From: an uncultured Candidatus Saccharibacteria bacterium
GTDB lineage: Bacteria; Patescibacteriota; Minisyncoccia; Phycocordibacterales; WO2-35-19
Direction: 5' to 3'
Length of the DNA: 64,000 nt
Assembly: GCA_964630525.1 (NCBI GenBank)
Contig: CAZVUY010000001.1
Coordinates: 114,901 to 178,900, forward strand
Shown: one piece after another, positions 6,014 to 56,640 of the stretch
Position numbering within the stretch: the stretch's first letter is position 1
Layout: each line of letters begins with the position of its first letter
Position numbers and translations under genes: made by a program
Notes under the pieces: generated by a model
What the model was told of the DNA's origin: nothing
Databases searched by the model: none
Seen by the model: the letters and a program-made list of their open reading frames with translations, nothing else

Positions 6014-6117
6014 AAACTATTTTTTTAATTACATTTATTAAAAAAATAATTTGGGGCCCGAGGAGCACATGACGAGGGCCTGCTCTCAGGAACTTTTGAT
6101 TTTTACCTCTATACTAG

Positions 6118-6561
6118 CTACTTGCTACTAGATTCTCTTCTCATTTCTCTCTCCGTATCCCTTTTCTTGATCGTCTCGCGCTTATCAAACTTCTTCTTGC
6201 CGCGGACGATCGCGATCTCGAGTTTCAATTTTCTCCCCTTATTATACACCGAGATTGGCACTATTGTCAATCCTTTCTGAGCTTCCTCTTTGCTTAGGTG
6301 CTCTATTTCTTTTTTGGTGAGAAGGAGTCGCCGAGTCCGGAGGGGGTCGTATTCCTTAGGGGTGTTGGCTGGTTGGTAGGGAGGGATCTGCATATTGAGG
6401 ATAAAGGCTTCATTGCCGCGCACCGTTACGTGAGCGCCCTCGAGAGAACCTTGGCTATTTTTGAGAGATTTCACCTCAAAACCAAGCAGCTCAATACCAG
6501 CCTCGATTTTTTCGAGAATTTCGTAGTTAAAATGGGCTTTTTTGCTTTGAATAAGGGGCAT
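6118..6561 (-). CDS. smpB: SsrA-binding protein SmpB
   Basis: The whole-length sequence is characteristic of SmpB (KKAHFNYEILEKIEAGIELLGFEVKS...). Its C-terminal basic tail reads KKKFDKRETIKKR. Confidence 0.9.
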   Translation of the reverse strand: MPLIQSKKAHFNYEILEKIEAGIELLGFEVKSLKNSQGSLEGAHVTVRGNEAFILNMQIPPYQPANTPKEYDPLRTRRLLLTKKEIEHLSKEEAQKGLTIVPISVYNKGRKLKLEIAIVRGKKKFDKRETIKKRDTEREMRRESSSK

Positions 6562-11148: not shown

Positions 11149-11184
11149 CCCGCCCGCAACGCTCTCGCTAGCGAGGCGGGCGGG
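11149..11184. repeat. GC-rich perfect hairpin element (CCCGCCCGC...GCGGGCGGG), copy 1
   Basis: It is 36 nt with a 9-bp GC stem and an inner CTCGCTAGCGAG palindrome. An exact reverse-complement copy lies at 22147-22182. A second hairpin (GACGGAC...GTCCGTC) follows at 11197-11223. Confidence 0.6.
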
Positions 11185-13783: not shown

Positions 13784-15724
13784 GTGGAAATATTTAATTC
13801 ACTCAATGGGGCCCAAAAAGGGGCAGTTCTAAAAACCGATGGGCCAGTATTGGTGCTTGCCGGGGCGGGGGCCGGTAAAACCAAGACTGTTACTTATCGG
13901 ATTTTAAATTTAGTTCACCAAGGGGTCGCCCCAGAATCGATCCTGGCCGTTACCTTTACCAACAAAGCGGCCAAGGAAATGAAGGAGCGAGTGCTAAAAC
14001 TATTTTCCGAAACAAAGGAGCTTAACAGACCCATTTCGCCAGACACTCTACCTTTTGTTGCCACCTTCCATTCTCTTGGTGCTTATATCATCAAGGAAAA
14101 TTTGGACAAAGTGGGTTTAAAAAAACATTTTAGTATCTACGACCGAGAAGATTCCAAAAAAGCGATCAAGGAAGCTTTGGAAAAAAATAGCTTCAATCCA
14201 AAAGAGTTCGATCCAAACAAAATACTCTCGATCATCTCCAGAGAAAAAGGAGCCTTCGTTGGAGTAGATGAATACCTAGAAAGGGGGGCGGATAGTTTCT
14301 TTGGTGAAGTGGTAGGTAAGGTTTGGCAAGAGTATGAGACGATCCTACGCCATGAAAACGCCTTGGATTTCGATGATCTATTGCTAGTCACCGGTAAATT
14401 GCTGCAACAAGAAGAGGTTCGAAAAAAGTACAGCGAGAGGTGGCGGTATGTCCATATAGACGAATACCAAGACACCAACAAAGTACAGTATGCGATCACC
14501 GCAGCGATCGTCCAAGATCACCACAATATTTGCGCGGTCGGCGATATCGACCAAAATATTTATAGCTGGCGAGGGGCCAATATTCGCAACATTATGAATT
14601 TTGAGCGCGATTTTCCGGGCGCCGAACTGATCGTACTCGAGGAAAATTATCGGTCCACCAAAACCATTTTGGCAGTAGCCAACAAGGCTATCGAGAAAAA
14701 TAAATACCGTCGCGAAAAAACTTTGGTTACCAAAAACGGTGCCGGCGAAAACGTAAGTGTGTTTGAAGCACTGACCGAGGAACACGAGGCTCAATTTGTC
14801 GTAGAAAAAATAAAAGAATTGAGAAACCAGGGAATTCCCCTTGGGGAAATAGCGGTGCTTTATCGAGCCAACTTCCAATCTCGAGTATTGGAGGAACAGT
14901 TCTTAAAAAAAGAAGTTCCTTACCAAATACTTGGCACCAGATTTTTCGATCGCAAGGAAATCAAAGATATTTTGGCTTTTATGCGGCTTTCGCTCAACAG
15001 AGAGAGTATTGCTGATTTGAAAAGAGTGATCAACGTACCACCGAGAGGTATCGGCAAAACCACCTTGCTTAAAATAGTAGAGGGTAAGGAAGCTTTGCTG
15101 CCTGCTAGCATGAGAATAAGGATAGCTTCTTTTCGAAACCTGTTGGAGCGCATCAAAAATTTTGGTTTGCACAATCCACCATCAAAAACAGTTTTTTTCG
15201 TAGCCGAAGAAGTTGGTCTCAACCAAAACTTGGAAAAAACCGAAGAGGGAGTGGAGCGAATCGAAAACATCAAGGAGTTGGGAGCACTCGCTTCGATGTA
15301 CGACCATTTGCCCCCAGAAGAGGGTTTGGGTAAATTGCTTGAAGATACTTCTTTGGTTTCTGATCAGGATAGTGATCAAAAAGAAAAAGACGGGGTAAGG
15401 CTGATGACGGTCCATGCCAGCAAAGGATTGGAATTTGCCTATGTTTTCGTGACCGGCCTTGAAGAAGGGCTCTTCCCTCACAACAAAGATGGGGCTAACC
15501 TGAGTGAGGATGAGGCCGAGGAGGAGAGGCGGCTCTTCTATGTTGCCGTCACCAGAGCCAAGAAAAAACTTTTCCTCACTTACGCCCAGACTCGCACCAT
15601 TTTCGGCAGCCGAGGAGTGAATATCCCATCCGAATTTGTACTTGAGTTGCCAGATGAATACATCGATAAAGAATTCTTAGACTACACCCCAAAAAGAAAG
15701 CCGCTTCTGCATATTGAATTTTAA
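13784..15724 (+). CDS. pcrA: UvrD/PcrA-type ATP-dependent DNA helicase
   Basis: The Walker A AGAGAGKTKTVTYR, TFTNKAAKEMKERV, DEYQDTN and the UvrD C-terminal motifs VTRAKKKLFLTYA are present. Confidence 0.9.
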   Translation: MEIFNSLNGAQKGAVLKTDGPVLVLAGAGAGKTKTVTYRILNLVHQGVAPESILAVTFTNKAAKEMKERVLKLFSETKELNRPISPDTLPFVATFHSLGAYIIKENLDKVGLKKHFSIYDREDSKKAIKEALEKNSFNPKEFDPNKILSIISREKGAFVGVDEYLERGADSFFGEVVGKVWQEYETILRHENALDFDDLLLVTGKLLQQEEVRKKYSERWRYVHIDEYQDTNKVQYAITAAIVQDHHNICAVGDIDQNIYSWRGANIRNIMNFERDFPGAELIVLEENYRSTKTILAVANKAIEKNKYRREKTLVTKNGAGENVSVFEALTEEHEAQFVVEKIKELRNQGIPLGEIAVLYRANFQSRVLEEQFLKKEVPYQILGTRFFDRKEIKDILAFMRLSLNRESIADLKRVINVPPRGIGKTTLLKIVEGKEALLPASMRIRIASFRNLLERIKNFGLHNPPSKTVFFVAEEVGLNQNLEKTEEGVERIENIKELGALASMYDHLPPEEGLGKLLEDTSLVSDQDSDQKEKDGVRLMTVHASKGLEFAYVFVTGLEEGLFPHNKDGANLSEDEAEEERRLFYVAVTRAKKKLFLTYAQTRTIFGSRGVNIPSEFVLELPDEYIDKEFLDYTPKRKPLLHIEF

Positions 15725-15738: not shown

Positions 15739-16743
15739 ATGAAAAATAAAAAGACCTCACCCCAAAGAAAACTAGGTCCCAAAAAATCATTGGGGCAAAA
15801 TTTTTTGAGAGATCCGAAAATTTTGAAAAAAATAGTTGATTTCGCTCAAATCGAAAAAGGTGACACTGTGGTAGAGGTTGGACCAGGCGAAGGAGGCTTG
15901 ACGGAAGAGTTGTTAAAACAAGCAAAAAAAGTAATCGCGATCGAAAAAGATGAGGAGCTAGCAAAAAAGCTGGAAGATAAATTTCGGGATCAAATTCTAA
16001 ACTCAAGACTGAAGATTTTGGTGGGAGATATATTGGAGCTGAGAGCTGAGAGCTTAGAGCTTGAAGGAAGAAATCAGAAAAACAAAAACTCTGAGCTCTT
16101 AGCTCCAAGCTATAAGCTTGTCGGCAATATTCCGTACTACATTACCGGCGCTTTGTTTAAAAAATTTTTGGAAACAGAGCAACAACCAAAATCGATCACC
16201 TTTGTTGTCCAAAAAGAAGTGGCGGAGAGGATAGTGGCCCGAAACCCCAACTCCGCTAAAGCTTCGCGGGGCAAGCAAAAGGAAAGTATTTTGAGTATAT
16301 CGGTCAAGGTATATGGGGAACCAAAATTTGGCGGAGTCATCAAGGCTGGTAGCTTCTTTCCTAAACCAAAAGTTGATTCGGCTATTTTAAGTATTAGGAA
16401 TATCAGCAAAGAAAGATTCAATGATCTAATCCCCCCAACCCCCTTTACTTTAAAGGGGGAGGAGGCTCGAATAGAAAATAATTTTTTTGAAGAAATAACT
16501 CCCCCAACCACTCTTACAACAAGAGGGGAGTTGGAAAATAAATTTTTTGAAATATTAAAGACTGGCTTTGCTCACAAAAGAAAGCTGCTACTCCGCAACC
16601 TCCTCGACGCAAAAGTGTCAAAGGGCACCTTTGACACTTTTGCGATTAAAGAGGTTTTTGGAGTTTGTGGGCTGGATGAGAAAGCGCGGGCTGAAGATTT
16701 GAGAGTGGAAGACTGGCTAGCGCTTACACAAAAACTGGCCTAA
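15739..16743 (+). CDS. rsmA: 16S rRNA adenine dimethyltransferase RsmA/KsgA carrying two in-frame insertions
   Basis: It has LGQNFLRDPKIL...VVEVGPGEGGLTEEL and NIPYYIT. It is about 334 aa against about 260-290 typical. The first insert is the palindromic AGCT element at 16035-16119. The second is a ~65-bp x2 tandem duplication at 16431-16560. Confidence 0.85.
   Translation: MKNKKTSPQRKLGPKKSLGQNFLRDPKILKKIVDFAQIEKGDTVVEVGPGEGGLTEELLKQAKKVIAIEKDEELAKKLEDKFRDQILNSRLKILVGDILELRAESLELEGRNQKNKNSELLAPSYKLVGNIPYYITGALFKKFLETEQQPKSITFVVQKEVAERIVARNPNSAKASRGKQKESILSISVKVYGEPKFGGVIKAGSFFPKPKVDSAILSIRNISKERFNDLIPPTPFTLKGEEARIENNFFEEITPPTTLTTRGELENKFFEILKTGFAHKRKLLLRNLLDAKVSKGTFDTFAIKEVFGVCGLDEKARAEDLRVEDWLALTQKLA
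16035..16119. repeat. AGCT-rich palindromic miniature element inside the rsmA reading frame
   Basis: The left arm is ggagctgagagctgagagcttagagcttgaagg, an A-rich loop follows, and the right arm is ctctgagctcttagctccaagctataagctt. The same family occurs at 22327-22420, 22831/23247, 23857-23925, 53065-53115 and 55205-55280. Confidence 0.65.
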
Positions 16744-17192: not shown

Positions 17193-18032
17193 ATGGTTTT
17201 GCCTAGCCGAAAAGTTTTGAGTTTGATGGTGCTCACCATCGCTTTGGTCGCTTCGATCATTATTGTTTTTGGTAAAGAAAAATCCGGCCAAGCGATCAAT
17301 TTTGCCAACAACTTAGTGGCAGGGGAGAAGTTTAATATCCCAGAAAATGACGGCTGGCAAACAGAGGTCAACCAAGTAGCCAAGCCAATCGACGTCCCCG
17401 AGCTTGAAGCTGAAGAGCAGACGGTCACTGATACCGTCTCCACCACCATCCTCTCCAACTACCTGGCTCTAAAACAAAATGACGCTCTCACCCAGGAGTC
17501 GGCACAAGAACTTATCGATCAGGCATCTGATTATATAAAACAAAACACCCCAACCAAGACACAGTTGGCAGATTTGAAAATAGTGGAAAGCAGTAAAGAG
17601 TCTATAGCCACCTATGGAGAAACCCTCGGTGAAATATTAAGAAGGAACAAACCAAAAAATTTTATAGACGAGATCTCAGTCATAGAAAAAATTGTTGGTG
17701 GGACAAACAACAAATCTATAAATAACGAACTTGAGATAGTGATAAAAAATTACCAGTCACTGGCAACAGAAATAAAAAAAATGCCAGTTCCTAAAATACT
17801 TGCCAAAACAAATCTGGAAATGATCAGTGGCCTAGAGGGAATAACCTATGGTCTTGAAGAAATAAAGAAAATCTCAAATGACCCTTTGCTAGGATTGGAG
17901 GGAATAAAGGTCTATAAGTTGGGAGGAAACTTGTTTATACAAGCACTCAAAACGGCAACCGAATTTATAAAACAAAGTAATATTGACTATAAACAGGGTA
18001 GTGGTGGTTATTACCTTTTTTACGGCATATAA
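17193..18032 (+). CDS. Hypothetical bitopic membrane protein (N-terminal TM, helical ectodomain)
   Basis: It has the TM segment LSLMVLTIALVASIIIVF. Its topology is compatible with a VirB8/VirB10-like accessory protein, but no motif supports that. Confidence 0.4.
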   Translation: MVLPSRKVLSLMVLTIALVASIIIVFGKEKSGQAINFANNLVAGEKFNIPENDGWQTEVNQVAKPIDVPELEAEEQTVTDTVSTTILSNYLALKQNDALTQESAQELIDQASDYIKQNTPTKTQLADLKIVESSKESIATYGETLGEILRRNKPKNFIDEISVIEKIVGGTNNKSINNELEIVIKNYQSLATEIKKMPVPKILAKTNLEMISGLEGITYGLEEIKKISNDPLLGLEGIKVYKLGGNLFIQALKTATEFIKQSNIDYKQGSGGYYLFYGI

Positions 18033-18041
18033 TTAAATAAA

Positions 18042-19331
18042 ATGCCAGAAAAAAATAGAAAAAAATTCAATAAATACTTTGGGTTTTTATCCATAGTTTT
18101 AATTTCTCTGTTTATTTTTTCTCCAATAGTGGTCCATAGAGCTAGCGCTCAACTTTTTGTACCAGTCTGGGATCCTGCCAACTTATCCGCCAACACAGTT
18201 ACCGCATCGAATGCCACCAGTCTCTCAATAAAGGAGCATATTTTAGACGCCATTGTTTACAAGGTATTGGATCTTATAATACAAAAAATGGCCGCAAGTA
18301 CCGTTAATTGGATAAACAGCGGGTTTAAAGGAAAACCCACTTTCATCACAAACCCTGGAGCCTTTTTTCAAGACGTTGGTGATAAAGTAGCGGGTCAATA
18401 TATATACGCCAACCCAAATCTAAACTTCCTCTGTGGACCAATCAGTGGTCGAATAAAAATTGCCCTTTCAAACAAATACCGTGGCAACGATATTAGGTGG
18501 CAGTGTACCCTTACTGACGTGGCGGGCAATATGGAAGATTTCATAAATGATTTTGACAAGGGTGGCTGGGATAAATTTTTCAGATTGACTCAAGATCCTC
18601 AGAACAACCCAATCGGTGCCTACATTCAAGCCGAAGGGGAACTGGCAAGACGAATTGCCAAAGAAACGGATGAGAAAAATAAAGAACTTAGTTGGGGTAA
18701 AGGTTTTTTTTCTACAACAAAATGTCCGGCTGGTCGCAGTATAACTAACGTAGTAGATAATCCAGAAGGTGGGAAGACGGTTACTTATGAGGACGGATCA
18801 ACCATAAACCAAATGCCTGACCCGAGCCTAAAGGTTGGAGGATGCGGAGTTAAAGAAAACATAGTTACACCAGGGTCAGTTGTTGAGGGACAACTGGGAG
18901 AGGTTCTCAGTATTGGCGGTAAAAAACTAGCTGTTGCCGATGAGATAAATGAAATAATAAGTGCACTACTTAACCAACTGGTCAGCAAAGCTTTTAGTGG
19001 ACTTGCGAGTCTGAGTCAACGCAACCCGACAAACGAAGGGGGGCGTTCATTTACAGAGTTATTGCACAGCTCCACAACCGATTCGGTTATTGATAACTAT
19101 ATAGAGTCGTCAACAGAAACCCTTCAACAGGCTATCCAAAATTCTATTGACAATCCTTACAATCCTTACGCCTGCAGAGATAATCCAAACCTCCCAGAGT
19201 GTCAAGTGCCTCAAGGACAGGTTGGTGGTAGTGGAGGAATAGATGGTAGTGGCGGAACAAGGTCATCCTGTGATCCAACCATAGAAACTTGCGAAGCCCA
19301 AGGAGCGCCAGGTGGTGGGCGAGGGAGATAA
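18042..19331 (+). CDS. Hypothetical secreted/anchored protein
   Basis: It has an N-terminal TM/signal (FGFLSIVLISLFIFSPIVV), several Cys and a Gly-rich tail. Confidence 0.45.
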   Translation: MPEKNRKKFNKYFGFLSIVLISLFIFSPIVVHRASAQLFVPVWDPANLSANTVTASNATSLSIKEHILDAIVYKVLDLIIQKMAASTVNWINSGFKGKPTFITNPGAFFQDVGDKVAGQYIYANPNLNFLCGPISGRIKIALSNKYRGNDIRWQCTLTDVAGNMEDFINDFDKGGWDKFFRLTQDPQNNPIGAYIQAEGELARRIAKETDEKNKELSWGKGFFSTTKCPAGRSITNVVDNPEGGKTVTYEDGSTINQMPDPSLKVGGCGVKENIVTPGSVVEGQLGEVLSIGGKKLAVADEINEIISALLNQLVSKAFSGLASLSQRNPTNEGGRSFTELLHSSTTDSVIDNYIESSTETLQQAIQNSIDNPYNPYACRDNPNLPECQVPQGQVGGSGGIDGSGGTRSSCDPTIETCEAQGAPGGGRGR

Positions 19332-19342
19332 AATTTTTAAAC

Positions 19343-21748
19343 ATGGATATTTTAAAAAATACCAAAAAACCGACGATTAAAAAGATATTAACGATTATTG
19401 TTATAGTCACTATAACAATAGGGGTTTTGGGATTTCCTGATAAAACTGTTCTGGCAGATGTAAGTTTGCTTCAAGCAGCATTGGGACCGGGTGCCATAGG
19501 GTTGGGCATGATGGGTGTAGATGTTTTTGAGGTTATGGCAAAAGGTACAGCAGAAATGCTAATTAAAATTTCAGGTTTATTTCTAACAATAACAGGAAAG
19601 ATGTTTGACTATGTTGTTGATTTTACAATCCTCAATATGGCCCAGAGAGTTGGTAATTCCGAGGGAGGATTAGGGGCTAGCATTAGCGCGTCTTGGGCAT
19701 CTTTGCGTGATATAGCAAACATGTTGTTTATTTTTGTACTTTTGTACGTAGCCTTTAAAGCGATATTTGATTTAGACTTTGGTAGCGTAAGTAAGTCAAT
19801 CAGAAATATTATTATTGTTGCCCTACTAATTAACTTTAGTCTCTTTTTCTCGAAAGTAGTGATAGACGCCTCAAATATTGTGTCCATTGGATTCTATAAC
19901 TCTATAGTAACGGCTAACACCAGGAGTGTACAAGGAGAGGGTGCGGTGGTTGGTAACCAAACTATTTCAACTGGTTATATGCGGTTACTTGGACTAACAA
20001 AGTGGTTTGATTCAAAAATACTGGAAAAAACAAAAATGACTGACGCAAAACAAATACTGGCTTATGGAATTTTAACATTCATATTTATGATGGTGGTAAC
20101 AGTGGTTTTGCTTATCGCCACAATAATGCTGTTGGCTAGATTTGTCATGCTTATATTTATCATGATCCTTTCGCCACTTGCCCTAATTGCCATTATAGTT
20201 CCAGGTATGAGAGGTTATTTTGATAAGTGGTTTCATGCCCTAATAGACCAATCCTTTTTTGCCCCAGTTTTCCTTGCCTTAACTTGGGTAGTATTCAAAA
20301 TAGCCTCCACTCCCGGTTTTATAGTCGGTGGTACAACAATAATCGCTTCGCAGGGTGCCTCATACACCGATCTGATGTCCGAGGCACCATCTGGTGGAGT
20401 GCTAGCCCTTGTGCTTAATTACGCATTGATAATAGGATTTACAATCGCGTCTCTGGTGATCTCCAAACAAATGGCGAGCAGGACCGCCGGGTTTACAGCC
20501 ATCAGTGGTGGTATAGGTGCCGGTGCTATTGGTGGCGCGGCGATACTAGGAAGACAAACTATTGGGAGGGGGGCAAAAATGCTCGCCGAATCAAGCAAAC
20601 TTCGAGATGCGGCTTCTGCTGGCAAATGGTATTCGGGAGCTGCCCGAGCAGGCCTTTGGACGGCTGACAAGGGGGCAGGTGGTAGTTTTGATTTGAGAGC
20701 AACCGACACTTTAAAAAAGGTTCCGGGGCTTGGTAAGGAACTAGATCTGTTGGGCAAAGCGGGTGGTAAGGGTGGTTTTGTTAAAGCGGTTGAACAAAAA
20801 GCAGATGATAAAGCTAAATACGCTAAGCGTGTTTATGGTCAAACTGCGACTGAAACTGAAAAAGCGCGGGAATTGGAGATAGATTATAACAAGCAAAAAT
20901 CTTTAGATGAAATTAGGATTAAAACAGAAAGAGAAAAGATGGCTCGCGAGAAAGAAACTATTCATAATAGAAACATTATCAATAGAGATAGGTACTTCAA
21001 TGACTCAAGGGTGGCTGGAGACCAAAGACTTATAGATATTCAAAATGATTTTGAGTTTAAAAAAGACGAGTATGAAAAGGCAAAGAAATCAGGAACAAAA
21101 ACCAAGGAAGAGTTGGAAGAGCTAATGAAAGCCAGGGATGAAAGTAGAGAAAACATGGAAAAAACTCAGACATCTATCGCTGATGAGGTATTCAAAGGGG
21201 ATGTTGATTATGTGAACACTAGGGAAGCAGCCAAGTCAAGCAAAGAAGAGCTACGGAAAGCGAAAGAGAGGTTGAAAATGAACAAAGAAAATAAGTTTGA
21301 TGATAATGAATATTTGGATGAAGTGCAAAACCTAAAGAAAGAATGGGTAGCCAAAAAAGAAGCGGGTAAAAGGAGGATGATAGAATTTGCGGATAGAGTA
21401 GAAAAAGGTTCACCGGTTTCAACGATGGTGGGAGGGTTGGCTGGTGGCGCCTTAGGAACAATATTTGGGGGACCTATTGGGACGCTGATTGGAGCTGGAG
21501 CTGGTGCGGGAGGTGGCAGCTGGGCGGGCGGCAAGCTACCTAAGCGAGCTAACTGGGCAGGAAACACAGAGGCGGGAAGAAAAATAAGAGCGGCAGCCGA
21601 AGGAAGAGATAAAAAAGATCCTAAGAAACTTAAGAAAGAGATAGATGATTTGTTTGGTATAAAAAATGAAGAAGGGGATGGTCAAAGTGGTGACGAAGGA
21701 AATAAAAAAGAAGGCGAGGAAGATAAAGATAAGAAAAAAGAATCGTAA
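19343..21748 (+). CDS. Polytopic membrane protein with long charged coiled-coil C-terminus (VirB6/TrbL-like architecture)
   Basis: The first ~400 aa hold at least 6 hydrophobic helices. A K/E-rich region and GGxGG repeats follow. The likely start is MDILKNTKKP at 19343. Confidence 0.5.
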   Translation: MDILKNTKKPTIKKILTIIVIVTITIGVLGFPDKTVLADVSLLQAALGPGAIGLGMMGVDVFEVMAKGTAEMLIKISGLFLTITGKMFDYVVDFTILNMAQRVGNSEGGLGASISASWASLRDIANMLFIFVLLYVAFKAIFDLDFGSVSKSIRNIIIVALLINFSLFFSKVVIDASNIVSIGFYNSIVTANTRSVQGEGAVVGNQTISTGYMRLLGLTKWFDSKILEKTKMTDAKQILAYGILTFIFMMVVTVVLLIATIMLLARFVMLIFIMILSPLALIAIIVPGMRGYFDKWFHALIDQSFFAPVFLALTWVVFKIASTPGFIVGGTTIIASQGASYTDLMSEAPSGGVLALVLNYALIIGFTIASLVISKQMASRTAGFTAISGGIGAGAIGGAAILGRQTIGRGAKMLAESSKLRDAASAGKWYSGAARAGLWTADKGAGGSFDLRATDTLKKVPGLGKELDLLGKAGGKGGFVKAVEQKADDKAKYAKRVYGQTATETEKARELEIDYNKQKSLDEIRIKTEREKMAREKETIHNRNIINRDRYFNDSRVAGDQRLIDIQNDFEFKKDEYEKAKKSGTKTKEELEELMKARDESRENMEKTQTSIADEVFKGDVDYVNTREAAKSSKEELRKAKERLKMNKENKFDDNEYLDEVQNLKKEWVAKKEAGKRRMIEFADRVEKGSPVSTMVGGLAGGALGTIFGGPIGTLIGAGAGAGGGSWAGGKLPKRANWAGNTEAGRKIRAAAEGRDKKDPKKLKKEIDDLFGIKNEEGDGQSGDEGNKKEGEEDKDKKKES

Positions 21749-21753
21749 ATAAT

Positions 21754-22326
21754 ATGGAGGAGAGTAATAAAATATTAAAAGAACAGATAGAAAAATTGCC
21801 AACAGCGCTTAAAAATTTTGTGCTTAGCAATGAGTGGACAAAAAAATTGAGAGTATACCTGGATAGTCTTCAGCTGGAAGAGTGGCAGAAAGTTTCGGTA
21901 GAAAACGAAGTGTTTTTGATCTTGATGGGTTTCGAAGAGTATGCAAATTTACCAGGCAACATATCCGAAAATACCGAAATGGATTTTGAGGTAGCCGAAA
22001 AAATATCGGAGTTTGTAATAAAAGATATTTTGAAACCAGTAGCAGATTTGGTAGTAAAAGAATTTGAAAAATCGGAACAACCGCCATCCAGTTCAATCGG
22101 CAACTCATTCGAACGTATCATCTTAAACCAAGCGAGGGCGATGCAGCCCGCCCGCCTCGCTAGCGAGAGCGTTGCGGGCGGGCCAGCCCGCGAAGCGGGT
22201 AGTGGTAGCCAGCAACCAGCACCTAGCAGCCGGGTTCCGGACAATCTGCCGACTGAAGATTTGAAACCAAAACCTACAACACCAAATTATTCTGGGCAGG
22301 ATCCGTATAGAGAACCGGTGGAGTAG
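21754..22326 (+). CDS. Hypothetical acidic cytoplasmic protein with REP-hairpin-encoded low-complexity C-terminus
   Basis: The C-terminal residues ...ARAMQPARLASESVAGGPAREAGSG... are encoded by the GC hairpin copy at 22147-22182. Confidence 0.45.
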   Translation: MEESNKILKEQIEKLPTALKNFVLSNEWTKKLRVYLDSLQLEEWQKVSVENEVFLILMGFEEYANLPGNISENTEMDFEVAEKISEFVIKDILKPVADLVVKEFEKSEQPPSSSIGNSFERIILNQARAMQPARLASESVAGGPAREAGSGSQQPAPSSRVPDNLPTEDLKPKPTTPNYSGQDPYREPVE

Positions 22327-22420
22327 GGAGCTTGGAGCTAAAAGCTTAGAGCTTAGAGGAGAAAAATAAAAAATGATATAATTTTGAAAGCTTACAGCTC
22401 TAAGCTCTAAGCTCTAAGCT
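22327..22420. repeat. AGCT-rich palindromic miniature element filling the intergenic spacer exactly (stop-to-start)
   Basis: The sequence is ggagcttggagctaaaagcttagagcttagagg, an A/T loop, then aagcttacagctctaagctctaagctctaagct. Confidence 0.65.
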
Positions 22421-22423
22421 AAA

Positions 22424-22843
22424 ATGCGTTTTCAAATCCCACAATTCATCGACGTTGAAGATAAAATATTTGGTCCTTTTACCTTGAAGCAATTTATCTA
22501 CTTAGCCGGGGGGGCCAGTATCGCCCTCGCCTGCGTTACTATTTTCGGCTTAGTTTTGGGGCTCATGATCGCCTCACCGATCATCATCCTCGCCGCCGCG
22601 CTCGCTTTTTATAAGGTCAACAACAGACCGTTCATCAACATGCTCGAGTCTGCTTTCAAATATCTCACCAAAGACAAGCTTTATATTTGGCAAAAAAGCG
22701 AAAAAACTGAAGCTGAGATGGTGGCGGAAGAGAAAAAGTATAGCTCGGTCATTGTACCCAATCTTGGTGATAGCAAACTCAAAGACATGAACTGGCAATT
22801 GGATGTGAAGAAAAAGGAAGATGATCTATTAGCTAAGAGCTGA
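22424..22843 (+). CDS. Small two-TM membrane protein (VirB3-like position and topology)
   Basis: It is 139 aa with a hydrophobic hairpin LAGGASIALACVTIFGLVLGLMIASPIIILAAALAF. It lies upstream of the VirB4-like ATPase, as in Gram-positive T4SS operons. Confidence 0.4.
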   Translation: MRFQIPQFIDVEDKIFGPFTLKQFIYLAGGASIALACVTIFGLVLGLMIASPIIILAAALAFYKVNNRPFINMLESAFKYLTKDKLYIWQKSEKTEAEMVAEEKKYSSVIVPNLGDSKLKDMNWQLDVKKKEDDLLAKS

Positions 22844-22863
22844 GAGCTTGGAGCTTAGAGTAG
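22831..22863. repeat. Left half-arm of AGCT palindromic element
   Basis: The sequence agctaagagctgagagcttggagcttagagtag supplies the stop codon of the upstream gene. Confidence 0.55.
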
Positions 22864-22866
22864 AAA

Positions 22867-23235
22867 ATGCTAAAAACTTATAGAGATTTACTCATATGGA
22901 AAAGGTCGATAGATTTGGCAACAAAAGTATATAAAGTTACAGAAATTTTTCCAAAATCAGAAATATACGGGATTGTATCCCAAATGAGAAGATCGGCTGT
23001 TTCTATATCTTCAAACATAGCAGAGGGAAGGAACAGGGGCACAAGAAAAGATTTTGCTCAATTTTTGAGAATAGCGTTGGGTTCTACAGCGGAACTAGAA
23101 TCTCAGACAGAGATATCAAAAAATTTGAATTTTATAAACCAGATTGAATATTCACAGATAATCTCTGAGACAAATGAAATAGGAATGATGTTGCGTGCTA
23201 TAATTAGAAAGCTGGACTCTAAGCTCCAAGCTTAA
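22867..23235 (+). CDS. Four-helix-bundle protein of the '23S rRNA intervening-sequence protein' family
   Basis: It is 122 aa with YRDLLIWKRSIDLATKVYKVTEIFPKSEIYGIVSQMRRSAVSISSNIAEG, typical of the TIGR02436-like family. Half-arms of the AGCT element flank it on both sides. Confidence 0.75.
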   Translation: MLKTYRDLLIWKRSIDLATKVYKVTEIFPKSEIYGIVSQMRRSAVSISSNIAEGRNRGTRKDFAQFLRIALGSTAELESQTEISKNLNFINQIEYSQIISETNEIGMMLRAIIRKLDSKLQA

Positions 23236-23247
23236 AGCTCTAAGCTT
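23212..23247. repeat. Right half-arm of AGCT palindromic element
   Basis: The sequence ctggactctaagctccaagcttaaagctctaagctt encodes the last residues and the stop of the four-helix-bundle gene. Confidence 0.55.
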
Positions 23248-23250
23248 TTT

Positions 23251-23871
23251 ATGAAAAATGCTACTCAAGAATTTGTACCGATAGACGATGTGCGCGATGG
23301 GATAGCCATCCTCAAAAGCGGTGGGATGCGCGGCGTACTCATGGCTTCAAGCGTAAACTTCTCCCTCAAGTCAGAAGAGGAGAGGCAGGCTATCCTATTC
23401 CAATTCCAAGATTTCTTAAACTCTCTGGATTTTTCGGTCCAGATCATCGTCCAATCAAGAAAGCTCGATATCAGACCCTATATCGCCCTTTTGGAGAACA
23501 GGCACAAAGAGCAAACCAACGACCTGATGAAAATCCAGATCGAACAATACATTGCTTTCATTAGAAGTTTTACCGAATCGACCAACATCATGACCAAAAA
23601 CTTCTTCATTGTGGTCCCATATGATGCCGCCATCATCTCTACCAAAACAGGGTTGTTGGACAATTTGCGAGGCAATAGGAACAAAGAGACAAAGGAAGAA
23701 GATTTCGAAGAAAGGCGCAATCAGCTCGAGCAGCGAATGGGAGTGGTAGAGCAGGGCTTGGTGCGCTCCGGCGTCAGGGTAGCCAAGCTCGGTACCGACG
23801 AAGTGGTCGAGTTGTTTTATAAGATATTTAATCCGGGAGAAACGGAGAAACCAATCAAGCTTGGAGCTTGA
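23251..23871 (+). CDS. VirB4/TrbE/CagE N-terminal-domain-like protein (separate ORF)
   Basis: The motif IDDVRDGIAILKSGGMRGVLMASSVNFSLKSEEERQAILFQFQDFLNSL resembles the N-terminal domain of VirB4-family ATPases. Its stop codon lies inside a palindromic element. Confidence 0.5.
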   Translation: MKNATQEFVPIDDVRDGIAILKSGGMRGVLMASSVNFSLKSEEERQAILFQFQDFLNSLDFSVQIIVQSRKLDIRPYIALLENRHKEQTNDLMKIQIEQYIAFIRSFTESTNIMTKNFFIVVPYDAAIISTKTGLLDNLRGNRNKETKEEDFEERRNQLEQRMGVVEQGLVRSGVRVAKLGTDEVVELFYKIFNPGETEKPIKLGA

Positions 23872-23925
23872 AGCTAATAGCTTAGAGGAAAAAACTTTAA
23901 ACTCCAAGCTCTTAGCTCTAAGCTT
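23857..23925. repeat. AGCT-rich palindromic miniature element separating the two VirB4-like ORFs
   Basis: The sequence is aagcttggagcttgaagctaatagcttagagg, then aaaaaactttaaa, then ctccaagctcttagctctaagctt. Confidence 0.65.
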
Positions 23926-23933
23926 TCAAAAAT

Positions 23934-25727: not shown

Positions 25728-25728
25728 C

Positions 25729-25802
25729 ACCCCTCCCAACCCTCCCCAAAAGAGAGGGTTCCAAACCCCCTTCCCCTTCGGGGAAGGGTTGAGGATGGGG
25801 TG
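25729..25802. repeat. GC-rich hairpin cluster (CCCTTCCCC-TTCG-GGGAAGGG etc.)
   Basis: It sits directly after the VirB4 stop. It is terminator-like and related in style to the other GC-rich REP-like hairpins. Confidence 0.45.
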
Positions 25803-25825
25803 GAAATGATATAATCAAGTGAAAT

Positions 25826-26263
25826 ATGGAAGAAGAAGTCCAACCAAAACAAAAACTAATTAGAAGGTCAGTGCCGCAACCTGCCCAACCAGAACAAAAA
25901 AAAGAGCGAATAAAAGTTTGGGTTGGTTTTATGTTAGCAGCCATTGTTTTGTTTATTGATGGGTTCCAAGCTTTGTTGGGCACCTTTGCCATAGGTATTG
26001 CCATAAATTCGGTTATAACAGCTGTGGCTTACTTTGCTTTCTGGGTCATATTTATGATCCTGGGAGTGTCTTTTATGGGAAATCCGAAAAGTTTTGCCGC
26101 CATAGGAGTGTCCGGGTTGGCAGAATTAATTCCAGCATTAAACATGCTGCCGGCATTGAGCGCTGGAGTCATATCTGTGATCTTGATCACTATGGCCGAA
26201 GACAAAGGTGGTATAATTGGTGAAGCTGCCGGCTTAATGCAAGGTAAATTCAAACAAGGATGA
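25826..26263 (+). CDS. Small polytopic membrane protein
   Basis: Three hydrophobic helices follow a basic N-terminus. Confidence 0.45.
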   Translation: MEEEVQPKQKLIRRSVPQPAQPEQKKERIKVWVGFMLAAIVLFIDGFQALLGTFAIGIAINSVITAVAYFAFWVIFMILGVSFMGNPKSFAAIGVSGLAELIPALNMLPALSAGVISVILITMAEDKGGIIGEAAGLMQGKFKQG

Positions 26264-28168: not shown

Positions 28169-28169
28169 A

Positions 28170-49779: not shown

Positions 49780-49825
49780 GTTGTTTTGATTGAATTAAGG
49801 ATTAAAAATTTTTCTTCCCCTCAAA

Positions 49826-49925
49826 CGAAATCGCGAATTCCGTTTTGAGCCGAAAATACAATACGCGCGAGCCGCCGAGCAGAGCGAGGCGGCGAGCTCT
49901 GACTTGCAATTTCCTTTCTGGTGCA
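49826..49925. repeat. IR-A' (inverted copy of 48309-48408)
   Basis: It is an exact reverse complement of IR-A. The 26-bp IR-C ggattaaaaatttttcttcccctcaa (49799-49824) precedes it, and its partner is at 50061-50086. Confidence 0.7.
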
Positions 49926-50012
49926 GGATACTTGAATTAGTGCGAACCCACCGCGCCTTCGGCGCGGCACAACCCCCGCCAAAAATGCAGGCGGCGAAGC
50001 CGCACCGCTCAA
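49921..50012. repeat. ~92-bp perfect inverted repeat IR-B (partner 51006-51097) bracketing a membrane-protein gene
   Basis: gtgcaggatacttgaattagtgcgaacccaccgcgccttcggcgcggcacaacccccgccaaaaatgcaggcggcgaagccgcaccgctcaa has an exact reverse complement at 51006-51097. Confidence 0.7.
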
Positions 50013-50257
50013 AACCGCAAAAGAGCCCGGAAAAAACATCGGCGCGAACCATGTTTTGAATTGAGGGGAAGAAAAATTTTTAATCCAATAAATTCCCAAG
50101 GAAGAAGCCGCAATCGTGCGGATTTTTCGTTGCCCTTGACGTAAGGTACGGAATATGCTATGCTTATTTGCGAAAGATTGAGCCATGGTGGCTTGGTCGC
50201 AATAGCACATTTTCAACTCAAAAAACGGAGGTGCAGCTTGAGCGCAGAAACGATTGG

Positions 50258-50849
50258 CATGGTTTCTGGGCTGTTGGTGGTGGCGAGCGTCATCCCTTAC
50301 AGCATCAGAACCCACCAGGGCAAGGTGCAGCCGAACCTGACGAGCTGGTCGCTCTGGACGCTGATCGGCCTCGCCCTCTTGCTCACTTACAAGAGTTCGG
50401 GTGCCGAAGCGAACGTCTGGCCAGCGGTGTTCGGGTTCACTAACCCGCTCCTCATCACCTTGCTTGTTCTCAAACAGCATGGTGGGTGGACGAAGCCAAA
50501 CCGAGTCGAGGTCGCTTGTCTCGTGTTTGGCCTGTTGTCTCTCGGCCTGTGGCTGGGAGTTCGCGAAAACAAGGAGATGGCCCAATGGGCTCTCTATCTG
50601 GCAATTGTCGCGGACTTGTTCGCGGCGATTCCCACGATTGTGTTCGTGTGGACGCAACCGAATGGCGACCGACCGTTTGCTTGGGCGTTCTTCGCCGTCG
50701 GCTATGGTCTGGCAATCTTCGCCATTACCGAACACACCTTCGCGAACTACGTTCTCCCGCTCTACATGTTCTTCGGAGCGTTGAGCGTTACTCTCCCACT
50801 CGTTCTGTATCGGTGGCGACACAAAGTCCCGTTGTCGGAGTGGGTATGA
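50258..50849 (+). CDS. Hypothetical polytopic membrane protein (about 6 TM) inside IR-B/IR-B' segment
   Basis: The sequence from MVSGLLVVASVIPYS... onward is GC-rich. The track ORF starts at 50160. The antisense ORF 49821-50975 is an alternative that I judge spurious. Confidence 0.45.
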
Positions 50850-51005
50850 GTCAGAGACGAATAGCAAATCCGAGGCCCCTTGTGGTAGCAACATCACCAC
50901 TTGGGGCCTTTCTTCTTTTTGATTTGTTTGGTTATTTTTCATACAATACATTTGGTGTTTGCTTCGCAAACTCACATTTATTCGCCGTCAAAGAAAAACT
51001 TGAAA

Positions 51006-52655: not shown

Positions 52656-53264
52656 ATGACTAAAACCCAAAACCCCAATATCGTCGTTGTTTTAAATGAT
52701 ATAAGGAGTAACGAAAATGTCGGCTCGATTTTTCGTACCTGCGATGCGGCTGGCGTCTCCAAGATTTTTTTATGTGGCTACACTCCAGCTCCGGTTGACC
52801 GATTTGGCCGGGAAAACAAGGGGTTGACCAAAGCGTCTTTGGGAGCCGAGAGGTGGGTTCTGTGGGAAAAAGTAGAAAGTTTGCAGGGGGCTATTGAAAA
52901 AATTAAGCAGCTTCCTTCGGGGAATTCTCAAAAATGCACGGATATTTTCTTGCTAGAAAATTCCTCGTGCTCGGCTCAGTCAGCCTCGCAAGGCATTTTT
53001 GATAACACCCACTCAGGAAGCTGCTTAGTGGTTGGAGTCGAACAATCAGAAAATTCGATTGATTACCGCGAGCTCAAAAAATCTACGCTCCTAGCTTCTA
53101 GCTCTCAGCTTGCTCTTGTTTTTGGAAATGAGGTAGGTGGTTTGTCTCAGGAAGACTTAAAACTTTGTGATCTGGTGGCCGAAATTCCAATGCATGGTCG
53201 CAAAGAGTCCCTCAATGTGGCCGTCTCAGTGGGTGTCGTCCTGTTTTCGTTAGTAGCTGACTGA
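52656..53264 (+). CDS. SpoU/TrmH-family RNA 2'-O-methyltransferase with in-frame insertion
   Basis: It has NVGSIFRTCDAAG, LVFGNEVGGLSQEDL and a C-terminal SPOUT knot. An inserted segment at about 52900-53115 ends in an AGCT-element arm (53088-53115). Confidence 0.8.
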   Translation: MTKTQNPNIVVVLNDIRSNENVGSIFRTCDAAGVSKIFLCGYTPAPVDRFGRENKGLTKASLGAERWVLWEKVESLQGAIEKIKQLPSGNSQKCTDIFLLENSSCSAQSASQGIFDNTHSGSCLVVGVEQSENSIDYRELKKSTLLASSSQLALVFGNEVGGLSQEDLKLCDLVAEIPMHGRKESLNVAVSVGVVLFSLVAD

Positions 53265-54324: not shown

Positions 54325-55200
54325 CTATAGATAAATTTTTTGATGTTTGGGGCAGAAATGAGCACTACGTCCTCTAACCACCGTTCTTTCTATTATACCG
54401 CTACAACTCTTTTTCTGACACCTCTCTTTTTTCTTACCATATACCTGATGAAAATTTTGGAAGCCACCCTTTTCTCCAAAGGCATTGCGATAATCTGATT
54501 TGGAGTCGCCACCGTGTTTGATTGAAAATTTTAGTATCCGCTGCATGTTTTTGAATATCTCATCAAATTTTTTCTTCGGAACTTTATCGGCTCTCGAAAG
54601 TGGGTGAATACCGCTTGCCCAGAGGATTTCATCAGAATAGATATTGCCAATGCCGGCAATTATTTTTTGGTCCAACAAGGCTGATTTGATAGGTGTGTTT
54701 TTGCGTTCACCGACCATTTCAAAAAGTTTTTTGGCACTCAGCTTGGGGTCAAGAGCGTCTGGTCCTAGTTTTGCTGCATCATGGCTCCCGAGGTCGTTTG
54801 TTTCGACGATCGAAACGGAAGCAAATTTCCGCAGGTCTGACAAAAGTAGAAAATCACCACTTTTAAAAGAGAGTACAAAATGGACGTACTTTTCTGTCTT
54901 ACTTTTTTTGTACATCAAGCAGCCAGTCATTTTCATGTGGACTATTATAGTGAAAGCCCCGCCTCCTGCCGGAGGATTGAGGTGGATCAAGATGTGTTTG
55001 CCACGCCTTTCCAGATTGTTGATTGTAGAACCAATGACTAGTTTTTTGAATCTTTCAAAATATTTTTTGTTTTTTATTGTCTGGCGGTCGCCATGAGCGC
55101 TGCCAATATGAAAATCCGACCAAGCATCCGTTATTGTTTTGCCTATGATCACCGTCTTTAGACCCTCGACGGTAGTATGGACTTCTGGTAGTTCTGGCAT
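54325..55200 (-). CDS. mutM: Formamidopyrimidine-DNA glycosylase (Fpg/Nei family)
   Basis: It has the N-terminus MPELPEV, an H2TH region and the C-terminal zinc finger CQKKSCSGIIERTVVRGRSAHFCPKHQ. Confidence 0.85.
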   Translation of the reverse strand: MPELPEVHTTVEGLKTVIIGKTITDAWSDFHIGSAHGDRQTIKNKKYFERFKKLVIGSTINNLERRGKHILIHLNPPAGGGAFTIIVHMKMTGCLMYKKSKTEKYVHFVLSFKSGDFLLLSDLRKFASVSIVETNDLGSHDAAKLGPDALDPKLSAKKLFEMVGERKNTPIKSALLDQKIIAGIGNIYSDEILWASGIHPLSRADKVPKKKFDEIFKNMQRILKFSIKHGGDSKSDYRNAFGEKGGFQNFHQVYGKKKERCQKKSCSGIIERTVVRGRSAHFCPKHQKIYL

Positions 55201-55204
55201 ATTG

Positions 55205-55280
55205 AAAGCTTAAAACTAAGAGCTTTTAGCTTAGAGTGTAAGGGAATAAACTTCAAGCTCCTAGCTCTCAGCTCTAAGCC
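55205..55280. repeat. AGCT-rich palindromic miniature element between mutM and murE; encodes the last residues and stop of the Mur ligase
   Basis: The sequence is aagcttaaaactaagagcttttagcttagagtg, then taagggaataaact, then tcaagctcctagctctcagctctaagcc. Confidence 0.6.
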
Positions 55281-56640
55281 TTTGCAATTCTTCTCTGGCC
55301 ACACTGGCGTCATCCCACTCCTCTTTGCTTCCATTTGGCCCCATGATGTAAGGGTCAGTACCTTTGCCAGTGATGAGTACGGCTACGTTTTCGGATTGTT
55401 TATCGTAAGCGAGCTCCTTAGCTTTAGAGAGAGCGAGTCGGATAGCCTCTCTTCTGTCCATTATTATTTCCACTTTATTTTTTTCTGTTATACCGCCAAC
55501 CATCTCCTCAACTATTTTTTTCGGATCTTCATCGTAAGGGTCTTCGTTGGTCAGTATTATCTGATCGCAATATTGGTCAGCTACTTTGCCCATCTCTGGT
55601 CTTTTCCAAGTATCGCGGCCACCGCCAGTGTTGCCCAGTACACAAATCAATTTATGCTTGATTCCGGATTTTTCTTGAGACTTGTATGTTTCGTAAACTG
55701 CTTTTAGTGAGTCTGGAGTGTGGGCATAATCGACTATCACCTCAAAGTTTTGTCCGACCGCTATCTTTTCCATTCGACCTCGCACCAACTCTATTTTTTC
55801 GAGGGCGGTTTTTATTTTCTGATCTTGGATACCGGCAAATTTGGCGAAGGCGATGGCTCCTAGCATGTTGTAGATACTGAAAACGCCAGGCAAATGGCTA
55901 TGGATCACGATTTTGCCGACTTGGAACGAAGAACCATTGTTGTCTGTCTTTACATTGACCGCATCGCGCAAAGAATAGGGGATTTTGTTTTTAATATTGA
56001 GGGCCAAAAATTTCTGACCCTCTTTGTCATCGGTGTTGGCGATAATTACCGGTTCAAAATAATGGGAAGAAAAATTTTGAGAAGCGTGGGAACCATTTAA
56101 GGAGGAGCTTTCAAAATTTTTCTTCCCATTATTTTCTAGTTCTTTAGCAATAGACAGCTTGGCTTCAAGATACTTTTGATACGAACCATGAGATTCTACA
56201 TGTTCCGGTGCCAAGTTGGTGAAGATCAAAGCGTCGGGGTAGGTAAATTTGTGGCGGAACTGTTTCGCACCCTCACTCGTCATCTCAATGACGGCGTGGC
56301 TGCAACCTTTTTTGATAGCGTCAGAGAGGAATTTTTGGATGAAGAAACGGCCGGGCATGCTCATCTTGAACAAGTTTCTTTCTGACCGCCTACCAATTTT
56401 AAATCGCAAAGTATTCATGAGAGCCGTTTGAAAGCCGGCTTCTTCTAGAATGGCATTTACCAGTTCGGTCACGGTGCTTTTGCCTTTGGTGCCCGTCACT
56501 CCGACGACGATTATTTTTTTACCCGGAAAGCCGTAGAGAGTAGCGCCGAGCAAAGCCAGTAGATAATGATAAATCGGCTGACCGAGTCGAAAGATTTTTT
56601 TTGGTATTATTTTTTTTGCCAATTTAAGCAAACTATTCAT
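55261..56640 (-). CDS. murE: Mur ligase family protein, MurE-like
   Basis: It has the P-loop VGVTGTKGKSTV, the central domain and the C-terminal ILTNEDPYDEDP...ITGKGTDPYIMG pattern, like MurE DNPR...AGKGHE. Confidence 0.65.
   Translation of the reverse strand: MNSLLKLAKKIIPKKIFRLGQPIYHYLLALLGATLYGFPGKKIIVVGVTGTKGKSTVTELVNAILEEAGFQTALMNTLRFKIGRRSERNLFKMSMPGRFFIQKFLSDAIKKGCSHAVIEMTSEGAKQFRHKFTYPDALIFTNLAPEHVESHGSYQKYLEAKLSIAKELENNGKKNFESSSLNGSHASQNFSSHYFEPVIIANTDDKEGQKFLALNIKNKIPYSLRDAVNVKTDNNGSSFQVGKIVIHSHLPGVFSIYNMLGAIAFAKFAGIQDQKIKTALEKIELVRGRMEKIAVGQNFEVIVDYAHTPDSLKAVYETYKSQEKSGIKHKLICVLGNTGGGRDTWKRPEMGKVADQYCDQIILTNEDPYDEDPKKIVEEMVGGITEKNKVEIIMDRREAIRLALSKAKELAYDKQSENVAVLITGKGTDPYIMGPNGSKEEWDDASVAREELQRLRAES

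Follow-up and report, generated by a model that had tools for sequence, protein, structure and literature searches.

The 64,000-nucleotide stretch of DNA analysed here (the window; positions 114,901 to 178,900 of contig CAZVUY010000001.1, assembly GCA_964630525.1, from an uncultured Candidatus Saccharibacteria bacterium) carries, within its rsmA (ksgA) gene, a palindromic segment whose arms are built from AGCT-containing repeats and which is translated as part of the protein. We conclude, with a probability of roughly 0.6, that this segment is a member, lacking an open reading frame (ORF) of its own, of a dispersed stem-loop family whose long form is of the S23p type known from the intervening sequences (IVS) of 23S rRNA, and that it arrived in a loop of RsmA that is a hotspot for insertions and deletions, where it is tolerated and translated in frame. 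The related contigs used for comparison are labelled Candidatus Zambryskibacteria or Parcubacteria. Gene and element are located as follows:

15739..16743, plus strand: rsmA/ksgA coding sequence (CDS), the intact host gene, 334 amino acids (aa) (ORF list, Pfam, PDB, AlphaFold2).
16034..16119, plus strand: ORF-less AGCT-heptad hairpin in rsmA, in frame, residues 100-127 (repeat search, Tandem Repeats Finder period 7, folding, covariance model match).

The host gene is an uninterrupted ORF identified as RsmA/KsgA by Pfam RrnaAD (1.9e-44). Its best solved relatives are the B. subtilis KsgA chains (6ifs, 3.4e-37), with both domains aligned, and the top Foldseek matches of an AlphaFold2 model were KsgA structures. 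The features by which RsmA/KsgA proteins are recognized, RrnaAD with the S-adenosylmethionine-binding motif I (VVEVGPGxGxLT), motif IV (GNIPYY) and the C-terminal helical domain, are all found, and in the homologue alignment the invariant residues G48/G50/G52 and G129-N130-I131-P132 are present. Null mutants of E. coli ksgA are viable. The preliminary description of this DNA, made from its letters alone, had called the gene essential, which was an overstatement; in bacteria of the candidate phyla radiation (CPR), rsmA belongs to the less conserved ribosome-biogenesis factors (PMC12641178).

The left arm of the element (about 16036-16062) consists of four 7-nt units (GAGCTGA GAGCTGA GAGCTTA GAGCTTG) and the right arm (about 16086-16119) of complementary units (..CTCT GAGCTCT TAGCTCC AAGCTAT AAGCTT), giving a repeat unit of 7 nt where octamers had first been described. 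Between the arms lies a purine-rich loop of 23 nt (16063-16085), without an ORF of its own. The segment is translated without a stop, reading through as ...GDILELRAESLELEGRNQKNKNSELLAPSYKLVGNIPYY..., and the peptide from GDIL to YKLVGNIPYY is ELRAESLELEGRNQKNKNSELLAPS. When 16034-16119 was folded as RNA, the minimum free energy (MFE) was -37.1 kcal/mol (z -4.4), a value equalled by none of 200 shuffled sequences; the inner stem has 17 uninterrupted bp, and the MFE fold pairs 22 left-arm positions. The identical segment was found in independent assemblies (Logan, JGI and NCBI), which rules out an assembly artefact and, with it, the interrupted CDS that the preliminary description had raised as a possibility; its claim of a palindromic AGCT element read in frame without a stop was borne out. 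Chance or low complexity is ruled out as the origin of the element by the shuffles and by the motif counts given below, and an intron, riboswitch or other known RNA by the lack of any Rfam match at gathering score in the window.

The rsmA segment belongs to a family of five elements in the window, comprising the rsmA copy, three other short hairpins and one long form, with z-scores of -4.1 to -5.6 where folded. The four other members are listed here with their scores under a covariance model (CM) and their fold energies in kcal/mol:

22326..22421, plus strand: short hairpin that fills the gap from ORF 21754..22326 to the PrgI gene (ATG 22424); CM 84.3 bits; fold -38.3, z -4.9.
22831..23247, plus strand: long form, with arms around a PF05635 gene (Pfam 23S_rRNA_IVP 4.8e-38; sequence).
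23855..23927, plus strand: short hairpin from the TraC-like gene (stop within the left arm) to the TraG/VirB4-like gene (ATG 23934); CM 78.6 bits; fold -27.6, z -4.1.
55202..55276, minus strand: short hairpin from the Mur ligase gene (55261..56640, stop within an arm; translation) to fpg (54325..55200); CM 65.9 bits, minus strand; fold -35.4, z -5.6.

The motif GAGCTNAGAGCT (at most one mismatch) occurs 23 times in the window as compared with 0.7 expected, and AGCT-to-AGCT distances of exactly 7 were counted 33 times. The copies have in common a layout of arm, GGAAGAAA-type purine tract, loop, AACTCT and arm; what defines the family, two complementary arms of at least three AGCTNNN units with a purine tract and a loop, is found in the rsmA copy. 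The CM, referred to hereafter as R1, was built from an alignment (A7) restricted to short intergenic copies, taken from the window and two related contigs, so that the rsmA copy had no part in it. Model R1 nevertheless matched the rsmA copy over the full length of the model (16034-16115; model positions 1-84 of 84; 64.9 bits, E 5.6e-11), confirming the relation to the intergenic copies that the preliminary description had proposed. It also matched the orthologous rsmA copies of L002, L003, L004, L006 and L007, and a copy inside the CDS of a different gene in L132 (7536-7632); the L132 gene 7212-7793 bears a copy that is absent from its window orthologue.

Each copy outside rsmA occupies a spacer of co-oriented genes, its right arm stopping 3-10 nt short of the next start codon. 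The 55202-55276 copy shares its orientation with its minus-strand neighbour genes, and co-orientation with transcription is seen in each of the four short copies of the window. As had been noted earlier, an arm provides the stop, C-terminal codons or both for four other genes: 22424..22843 (PrgI), 22867..23235 (the PF05635 intervening-sequence protein, IVP), 23251..23871 (TraC-like) and, on the minus strand, 55261..56640 (Mur ligase). The right arm of the 22326-22421 copy, which is intergenic, has stops in all three frames. The 23855-23927 copy is kept at the orthologous position in L001, L130 and L131. A difference in heptad copy number between the window and L001 at the copy designated c4 was considered and rejected in favour of a single substitution. 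One further copy, claimed earlier at 53088-53115 in the SpoU methyltransferase gene, did not survive scrutiny:

53093..53110, plus strand: three AGCT units inside SpoU/TrmH, not a family copy (fold, orthologue alignment, CM).

This segment has no inverted partner (fold z +0.9), gave no model R1 match at E<=1 and does not differ in length from its orthologues (LLAPSSQL, ILASSSHL and similar), and on these grounds it is not a member of the family.

The same arms that form the short hairpins flank a PF05635 gene at 22831-23247, which went unmentioned in the preliminary description. The left arm (22831-22860) carries the PrgI stop; the 122-aa ORF between the arms (22867..23235) matches PF05635 ('23S rRNA-intervening sequence protein', S23p) at 4.8e-38, with a weak bAvd match; and the right arm (23210-23247) provides the last codons and stop of this gene, the next gene beginning at 23251. 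The family is therefore tied to the S23p-type intervening sequences. The long form is identical in L001, whose rsmA is 86% identical. At the PrgI|TraC-like junction L003 and L008 have no PF05635 module; the more distant L130, L131 and L132 have one, always within AGCT-heptad arms. L132 also has a second, intact PF05635 gene upstream of PrgI, at the position occupied by the short hairpin in the window, L130 and L131. Upstream of PrgI, the loops of the short hairpins preserve traces of both ends of the IVP gene, its start (AAAATGAT) and the final ~17 nt of its coding sequence (ATAATTTTGAAAGCT as compared with CTATAATTAGAAAGCT); alignment of the 22326-22421 copy to the ends of the IVP element gave the remnant as ATGAT...ATAATTTTGAAAGCT. 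Because of these remnants and of the intact gene at the same place in L132, the short forms look as if they derive from the PF05635-bearing long form by internal deletion. The element-rich part of the window, 17193-29408, follows immediately downstream of uvrD-rsmA, and its synteny extends to all related contigs; it is a conserved operon that resembles those for type IV secretion or competence (PrgI, TraC-like, TraG/VirB4-like ATPase; a type IV secretion system pilin in relatives). AGTAGCT-type heptads surround PrgI in L003 and L132.

This architecture is like that of the S23p-type 23S rRNA IVS of Leptospira, Coxiella and Xanthomonas, with inverted flanks of tandem heptamers and a long form in which a purine-rich tract precedes a PF05635 ORF (PMC4990558). 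In Coxiella burnetii, the S23p (PF05635) ORF is enclosed by a stem-loop and preceded by a purine-rich tract and by three heptamers in tandem (GACAGAT); the number of heptamers differs between strains, RNase III cuts at the first repeat, and one strain has a 176-bp deletion in the ORF (PMC4990558). Deletion derivatives are a further likeness, and cutting of the stem by RNase III is a feature of Coxiella. PF05635 ORFs are also found in rRNA insertions of CPR bacteria (PMC11270868), and Avd, a PF05635 homologue, helps a reverse transcriptase in diversity-generating retroelements (PMC10053308); no reverse transcriptase was seen here, and an Rfam scan found no rRNA gene in the window. Unlike the S23p IVS, the copies described here sit in operon spacers and protein-coding sequence rather than in rRNA, and the rsmA copy, which has the heptamer stem, lacks both the loop ORF and the rRNA location. 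A fragmented rRNA is harmless, whereas an mRNA would be destroyed by cleavage without religation, and excision by RNase III is not followed by ligation (PMC4990558, PMC11270868).

The association of PF05635 genes with such arms extends beyond the window. Among 80 diverse PF05635 loci from metagenome contigs (L133-L212; 42-61% identical to the window protein), the analysis covered the 72 for which 100 nt of flanking sequence was available to either side. Their upstream and downstream flanks were complementary, with a median duplex energy of -58.4 kcal/mol as compared with -39.0 kcal/mol for mismatched loci. Arrays of period 7 or 8 were found upstream in 65 of the 72 (best self-similarity at lag 7 in 47 and at lag 8 in 18), as against 10 of the 72 for a control stretch inside the ORF (five at each lag). 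The sequence of the unit varies by locus (TAGTGGT, GGGTGTA, GGGGTCT, ACGAGTA, AGCTTTT and others). None of 40 loci checked lies inside an rRNA gene, and the PF05635 genes run in the same direction as the adjacent ones (52:7 upstream, 48:10 downstream), at median gaps of 55 nt. A general link in the other direction, from AGCT-heptad arrays to PF05635 across phyla, was rejected; even with a profile hidden Markov model included, an IVP ORF lay near only three of the 120 array matches listed. The association runs one way, from IVP genes to arrays and not from arrays to IVP genes. Arrays of four or more AGCTNNN units occur in many phyla (at least 120 genome matches, L010-L129); their hosts among the matches listed are above all Acidobacteriota, with Selenomonadaceae, Cyanobacteria, Bacteroidota, Planctomycetota and Omnitrophota, and hairpins of the same design were seen, among the matches listed, in L012, L036, L083, L093 and L096.

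The element in rsmA lies between GDIL and motif IV, as first described, and comparison of lengths in 119 homologues showed that this loop is naturally variable. The stretch from DIL to Y(K)L is 8 aa long (NYELRIKN-like) in 40 homologues, 7 aa in one and 9-48 aa in 78, with at least six recognizable insert families. AGCT-type inserts are present in 11 of the 119, namely the window clade (25 aa), P0007/P0009/P0018 (27 aa), P0046/P0049 (24 aa) and P0028 (23 aa). The KsgA proteins of B. subtilis and E. coli likewise differ in length at this connection. The site is a hotspot for indels at which palindromic inserts of many kinds are accommodated; as a single loop in which six or more repeat families have landed, it offers a natural experiment on the insertion tolerance of an enzyme core. 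A second palindromic family (…SQKCTDIFLLENSSCSAQSASQGI…) occupies the rsmA site in other genomes and is present in frame in the SpoU gene of the window:

52906-53020: a different palindromic element inside SpoU/TrmH (52656..53264), in frame, with an 11-bp terminal inverted repeat (AAGCAGCTTCC/GGAAGCTGCTT), encoding ...SGNSQKCTDIFLLENSSCSAQSASQGIFDNTHSGS.

This SpoU element is absent in the closest relative (P0248) and is homologous to the rsmA-site inserts of P0017, P0026, P0050, P0057, P0073, P0095, P0113 and P0115. Dispersed palindromes therefore do enter these loops.

In the AlphaFold2 model of RsmA (119-sequence alignment; mean predicted local distance difference test, pLDDT, 84.3; predicted template modelling score 0.80), residues 100-124 are mostly coil between strands 91-95 and 125-133, with block pLDDT values of 79 and 54 as compared with >90 in the core. 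Further odd segments, 166-180 and 231-260, likewise have low pLDDT. The model, in which the insert is a low-confidence coil between core strands, is consistent with the surface loop suggested in the preliminary description.

Our favoured explanation runs as follows. The arms of the family are mutually complementary tandem arrays of 7-nt AGCT-core units; the long form has a gene for a PF05635 protein (an Avd-like four-helix bundle) between them, in the architecture of the RNase III-excised 23S rRNA IVS, and short forms would arise from it by internal deletion. An ORF-less copy would have entered rsmA between the strand ending in GDIL and the motif IV strand (GNIPYY), a connection of 8 residues in the shortest orthologues, and its arrival was probably by insertion or recombination and not by local growth. 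The loop would be harmless to the enzyme, leaving the methyltransferase core intact, and the copy would persist because it lies in the sole stop-free frame, adds a whole number of codons (net +17) and lies in a flexible surface loop. The mRNA stem of 17-22 bp could, by analogy, be an RNase III target or a ribosome pause; cuts by RNase III are not religated, and therefore any effect of the stem would lower, not enable, rsmA expression.

Within the window clade, nonsynonymous differences inside the element (pN 0-0.017 per site) are far below synonymous differences (pS 0.07-0.20 per site), from which we conclude that the rsmA segment evolves as coding sequence. The frame of the gene alone is stop-free through both arms (stops per frame: left arm 0/2/1, right arm 2/0/1). 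These data bear on the idea, raised in the preliminary description as folding out at the RNA level, that the segment is removed before mature RsmA is made, as an intron, an intein or a translational bypass. The strong hairpin and the analogy with excision of rRNA IVS are all that speak for it, and we consider it highly improbable. No Rfam intron or other RNA family was matched at gathering score in the window; 25 aa is far below intein size, and intein motifs are lacking; there is no stop codon and there are no matched take-off and landing codons of the T4 gene 60 type; excision by RNase III would come without ligation; and inside the segment pN is far below pS.

Several observations weigh against our favoured reading, and they concern the borders of the element, its mobility and its synonymous sites. 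The element does not look like a clean insertion. It was first described as an 85-bp insert, and a length of about 82-85 nt stands; these nucleotides, however, take the place of 24 native nt, so that the net gain is 17 codons (25 aa as compared with 8 aa in empty orthologues) and not 28, and the native codons overlapped or replaced include those of the conserved YKL, which are encoded by the right arm (TATAAGCTT). No target-site duplication or direct repeat was found at the borders of the rsmA, c2, c3 and c4 copies, where native sequence is replaced, and the element is accompanied neither by a transposase nor by any other gene known for mobility. Nor is there a transposase beside the elements in the window, L130, L131 and L132, the long form encoding only the PF05635 four-helix-bundle protein. 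We know of no function or activity for PF05635. The miniature mobile element of the preliminary description is plausible from its presence and absence among relatives, but neither a transposase nor a target-site duplication nor a mechanism was found. The low pLDDT of the insert is in part expected because most of the aligned sequences lack inserts.

Further points on the same side suggest that the segment could have arisen where it stands. The 'empty' 8-codon site (NYELRIKN) of L213 (10277-10304) consists of four GAATTAN heptads, and because this basal peptide is encoded by heptads the hotspot may never have been free of heptad structure. In UvrD/PcrA of L130 (1628-1652) and L213 (8271-8300), a solitary four-unit AGCT array, AAGCTTTTAGCTGAGAGCTTAGAGCTT, encodes KLLAESLEL with no change in length relative to window positions 13980-14010 (KLFSETKEL); native codons look overwritten there rather than inserted into. 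Local conversion or growth is therefore possible, and a reading without any insertion event can be built on it, in which the array arose in place by slippage or by templated conversion of a short heptad tract and its likeness to other copies reflects convergence or ectopic gene conversion between arrays. The replaced native codons, the lack of target duplications, the existence of solitary arrays (SpoU 53093; 6112-6131) and the occurrence of AGCT-heptad arrays in many phyla would all fit. Against it, the whole layout of arm, purine tract, loop and arm is held in common with the intergenic copies, the CM match running the full length from 1 to 84; insert lengths among homologues are 23, 24, 25 and 27 aa and do not follow 7-aa steps; and the unrelated palindromic family (SQKCTDIFLLENSSCS...) found at the rsmA site elsewhere and in SpoU of the window indicates that dispersed repeats enter this site. 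We regard origin in place as quite improbable, and arrival of a family member as the better account.

The remaining points against our favoured reading come from synonymous sites. Between the window and L004, pS is 0.20 in the element as compared with 0.65 in the flanking N-domain (Fisher p 0.0017), and in every element-bearing pair third-position identity is highest at codons 96-120 (0.68-0.88, as compared with 0.3-0.55 elsewhere), while pairs with an empty site show no such peak. The element is the part of rsmA best conserved at synonymous sites, which a merely tolerated loop would not predict. This fits a constraint that acts on the nucleotides of the hairpin or of the AGCT cores; it also fits an element-bearing allele that is younger than the divergence of the gene and has spread by recombination, the high-identity block of L004, which spans codons ~60-132 and reaches into the flanks, being like a tract of co-conversion.

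The first of these possibilities leads to a reading in which the hairpin is a selected RNA- or DNA-level control element of rsmA (an internal RNase III site, a ribosome pause tuning the level of KsgA, or a site for a protein that recognizes the periodic AGCT) and the peptide a by-product. Beyond the third-position identity, it would draw on the hairpin MFE, which is -31.8 kcal/mol or lower for 5 of the 7 rsmA orthologues, and on the co-orientation of the four short window copies with transcription and of the PF05635 modules with their neighbours. The rsmA stem is about as long as RNase III needs. Homologous stems of Coxiella are cut by that enzyme (PMC4990558). No signature motif of an RNase III gene (rnc) was found in the 64-kb window, the part of the genome to which this result applies. 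However, synonymous changes in L001, L003 and L004 disrupt pairs, and the MFE falls off from -37 in the window to -25 in L004 and -22 in L007 (z about 0). The orthologous intergenic hairpins c2 and c4 have invariant AGCT cores and no compensatory double substitutions, so that what is conserved is the self-complementary AGCT core; 40 of the 119 homologues have no insert, and others have unrelated inserts at the same site; and the L004 block resembles a recombination tract more than selection on a stem. A control element is in our view unlikely, and we retain the reading of a tolerated, translated family member.

The co-orientation with transcription, both of the four short copies and of the PF05635 modules, is easier to reconcile with a family that lives at the RNA level than with one confined to DNA. 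We tentatively put forward a broader proposal, to which we would give less than even odds. PF05635 genes within complementary heptad or octad arrays may be widespread and so far unrecognized transcript-embedded selfish modules, of which the classical 23S rRNA IVS would be the special case noticed first. Such modules would sit co-oriented in operons of many phyla, be released from transcripts via their stems and decay to ORF-less hairpins in spacers and coding loops; the raised synonymous identity and the L004 flank tract would on this view be traces of an element-bearing allele that spread by recombination or in a homing-like manner. We found no description in the literature of a general array-PF05635-array architecture beyond the Coxiella IVS paper. 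If the unit of array, gene and complementary array is a general mobile or RNA-processing unit, a testable role for PF05635 follows, and the source of many intergenic heptamer arrays and coding palindromes would be explained. The finding joins three things that have been treated separately: orphan PF05635 genes (Avd homologues), heptanucleotide tandem repeats of obscure origin and RNase III-cleaved intervening sequences.

Structurally and genealogically, the S23p-type IVS is the closest known system; the closest functional analogue is the Rickettsia palindromic element (RPE). RPEs are ~150 bp long and, as far as the work of Ogata et al. (2000, 2002) is summarized in PMC10969869, are in-frame insertions compatible with the protein fold. 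Like them, the palindromes described here are dispersed in a reduced genome, both between genes and in frame in unrelated housekeeping genes, and are translated; they form a multi-copy hairpin family with stop-free, in-frame copies that orthologues lack (rsmA; L132 7212-7793). Unlike RPEs, which have neither, the present element has arms of 7-nt periodicity and a gene-carrying long form; no sequence relation is expected, and the host is a free-living or epibiotic lineage of Patescibacteria rather than Rickettsia. In-frame palindromic repeats are textbook knowledge for Rickettsia only, and the same phenomenon is now seen in Patescibacteria; we found no literature on coding palindromes in CPR/Patescibacteria.

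STRR repeats are heptanucleotide tandem repeats. The heptanucleotide repeats of cyanobacteria, Beggiatoaceae and Bacteroidetes (TAACTGA, PMC4679880) resemble the arms described here in being intergenic tandem 7-nt units, often just upstream of starts and patchy across phyla, but are direct and almost without inverted partners, whereas the complementary arrays of the present family form a hairpin and can enclose a gene. Correia elements, ERIC and other miniature inverted-repeat transposable elements are also short inverted repeats at gene boundaries that can provide stops, be co-transcribed and sometimes lie in frame within genes, and Correia elements can be cut by RNase III (PMC10969869; PMC2759123; PMC2229807). 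They differ from the present family, in which no target-site duplication was seen, which has no related transposase-encoding parent, and whose arms are heptad repeats and not unique terminal inverted repeats. PARCELs are likewise dyad-symmetric coding DNA that spreads among genes and genomes, but are tandem 25-residue domains of surface proteins and not single hairpins in enzymes.

The preliminary description had regarded a palindrome in coding sequence as unusual, which does not hold for this genome. Of the 19 strongest window hairpins that were examined, 8 sit within long ORFs, and rsmA by itself contains no fewer than three additional odd hairpin segments (16233-16275, 16425-16540 and 16608-16644), all with low pLDDT or variable. 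The first is a 10-codon palindromic insert (NPNSAKASRG) found only in relatives at least 86% identical; the second has hairpins CCCCCTTTA/TAAAGGGGG and AACTCCCC/GGGGAGTT in an apparently tandemly duplicated linker (…ENNFFEE / …ENKFFEI); and the third is a perfect 17-bp inverted repeat encoding DAKVSKGTFDTFAIK. Within the Mur ligase CDS (55261..56640, minus strand), 56056-56135 is an inverted repeat whose 25-bp arms match perfectly around a loop of 30 nt; it reads ...NNGKKNFESSSLNGSHASQNFSSHYF..., and the motif GGGAAGAAAAATTT at 50058-50095, in ORF 49821..50975, is related to it. A GC-rich hairpin family (GCCCGCCCGC..GCGGGCGGGC) is present at 22146-22183 and 11149-11184; one copy, read in frame within ORF 21754..22326, gives the peptide PARLASESVAGGPA, which recurs in the L132 orthologue, and the rsmA homologue P0075 has a similar peptide, RIRESVAGG. 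Finally, a second heptad subfamily occupies 57229-57375, where (AGTAGCN)x4 at 57229-57260 is followed, ~80 nt apart, by a complementary (CTNNNTA)x5 at 57338-57372 that ends at a start codon, and a solitary TACTAGC array at 6112-6131 adjoins the tmRNA gene.

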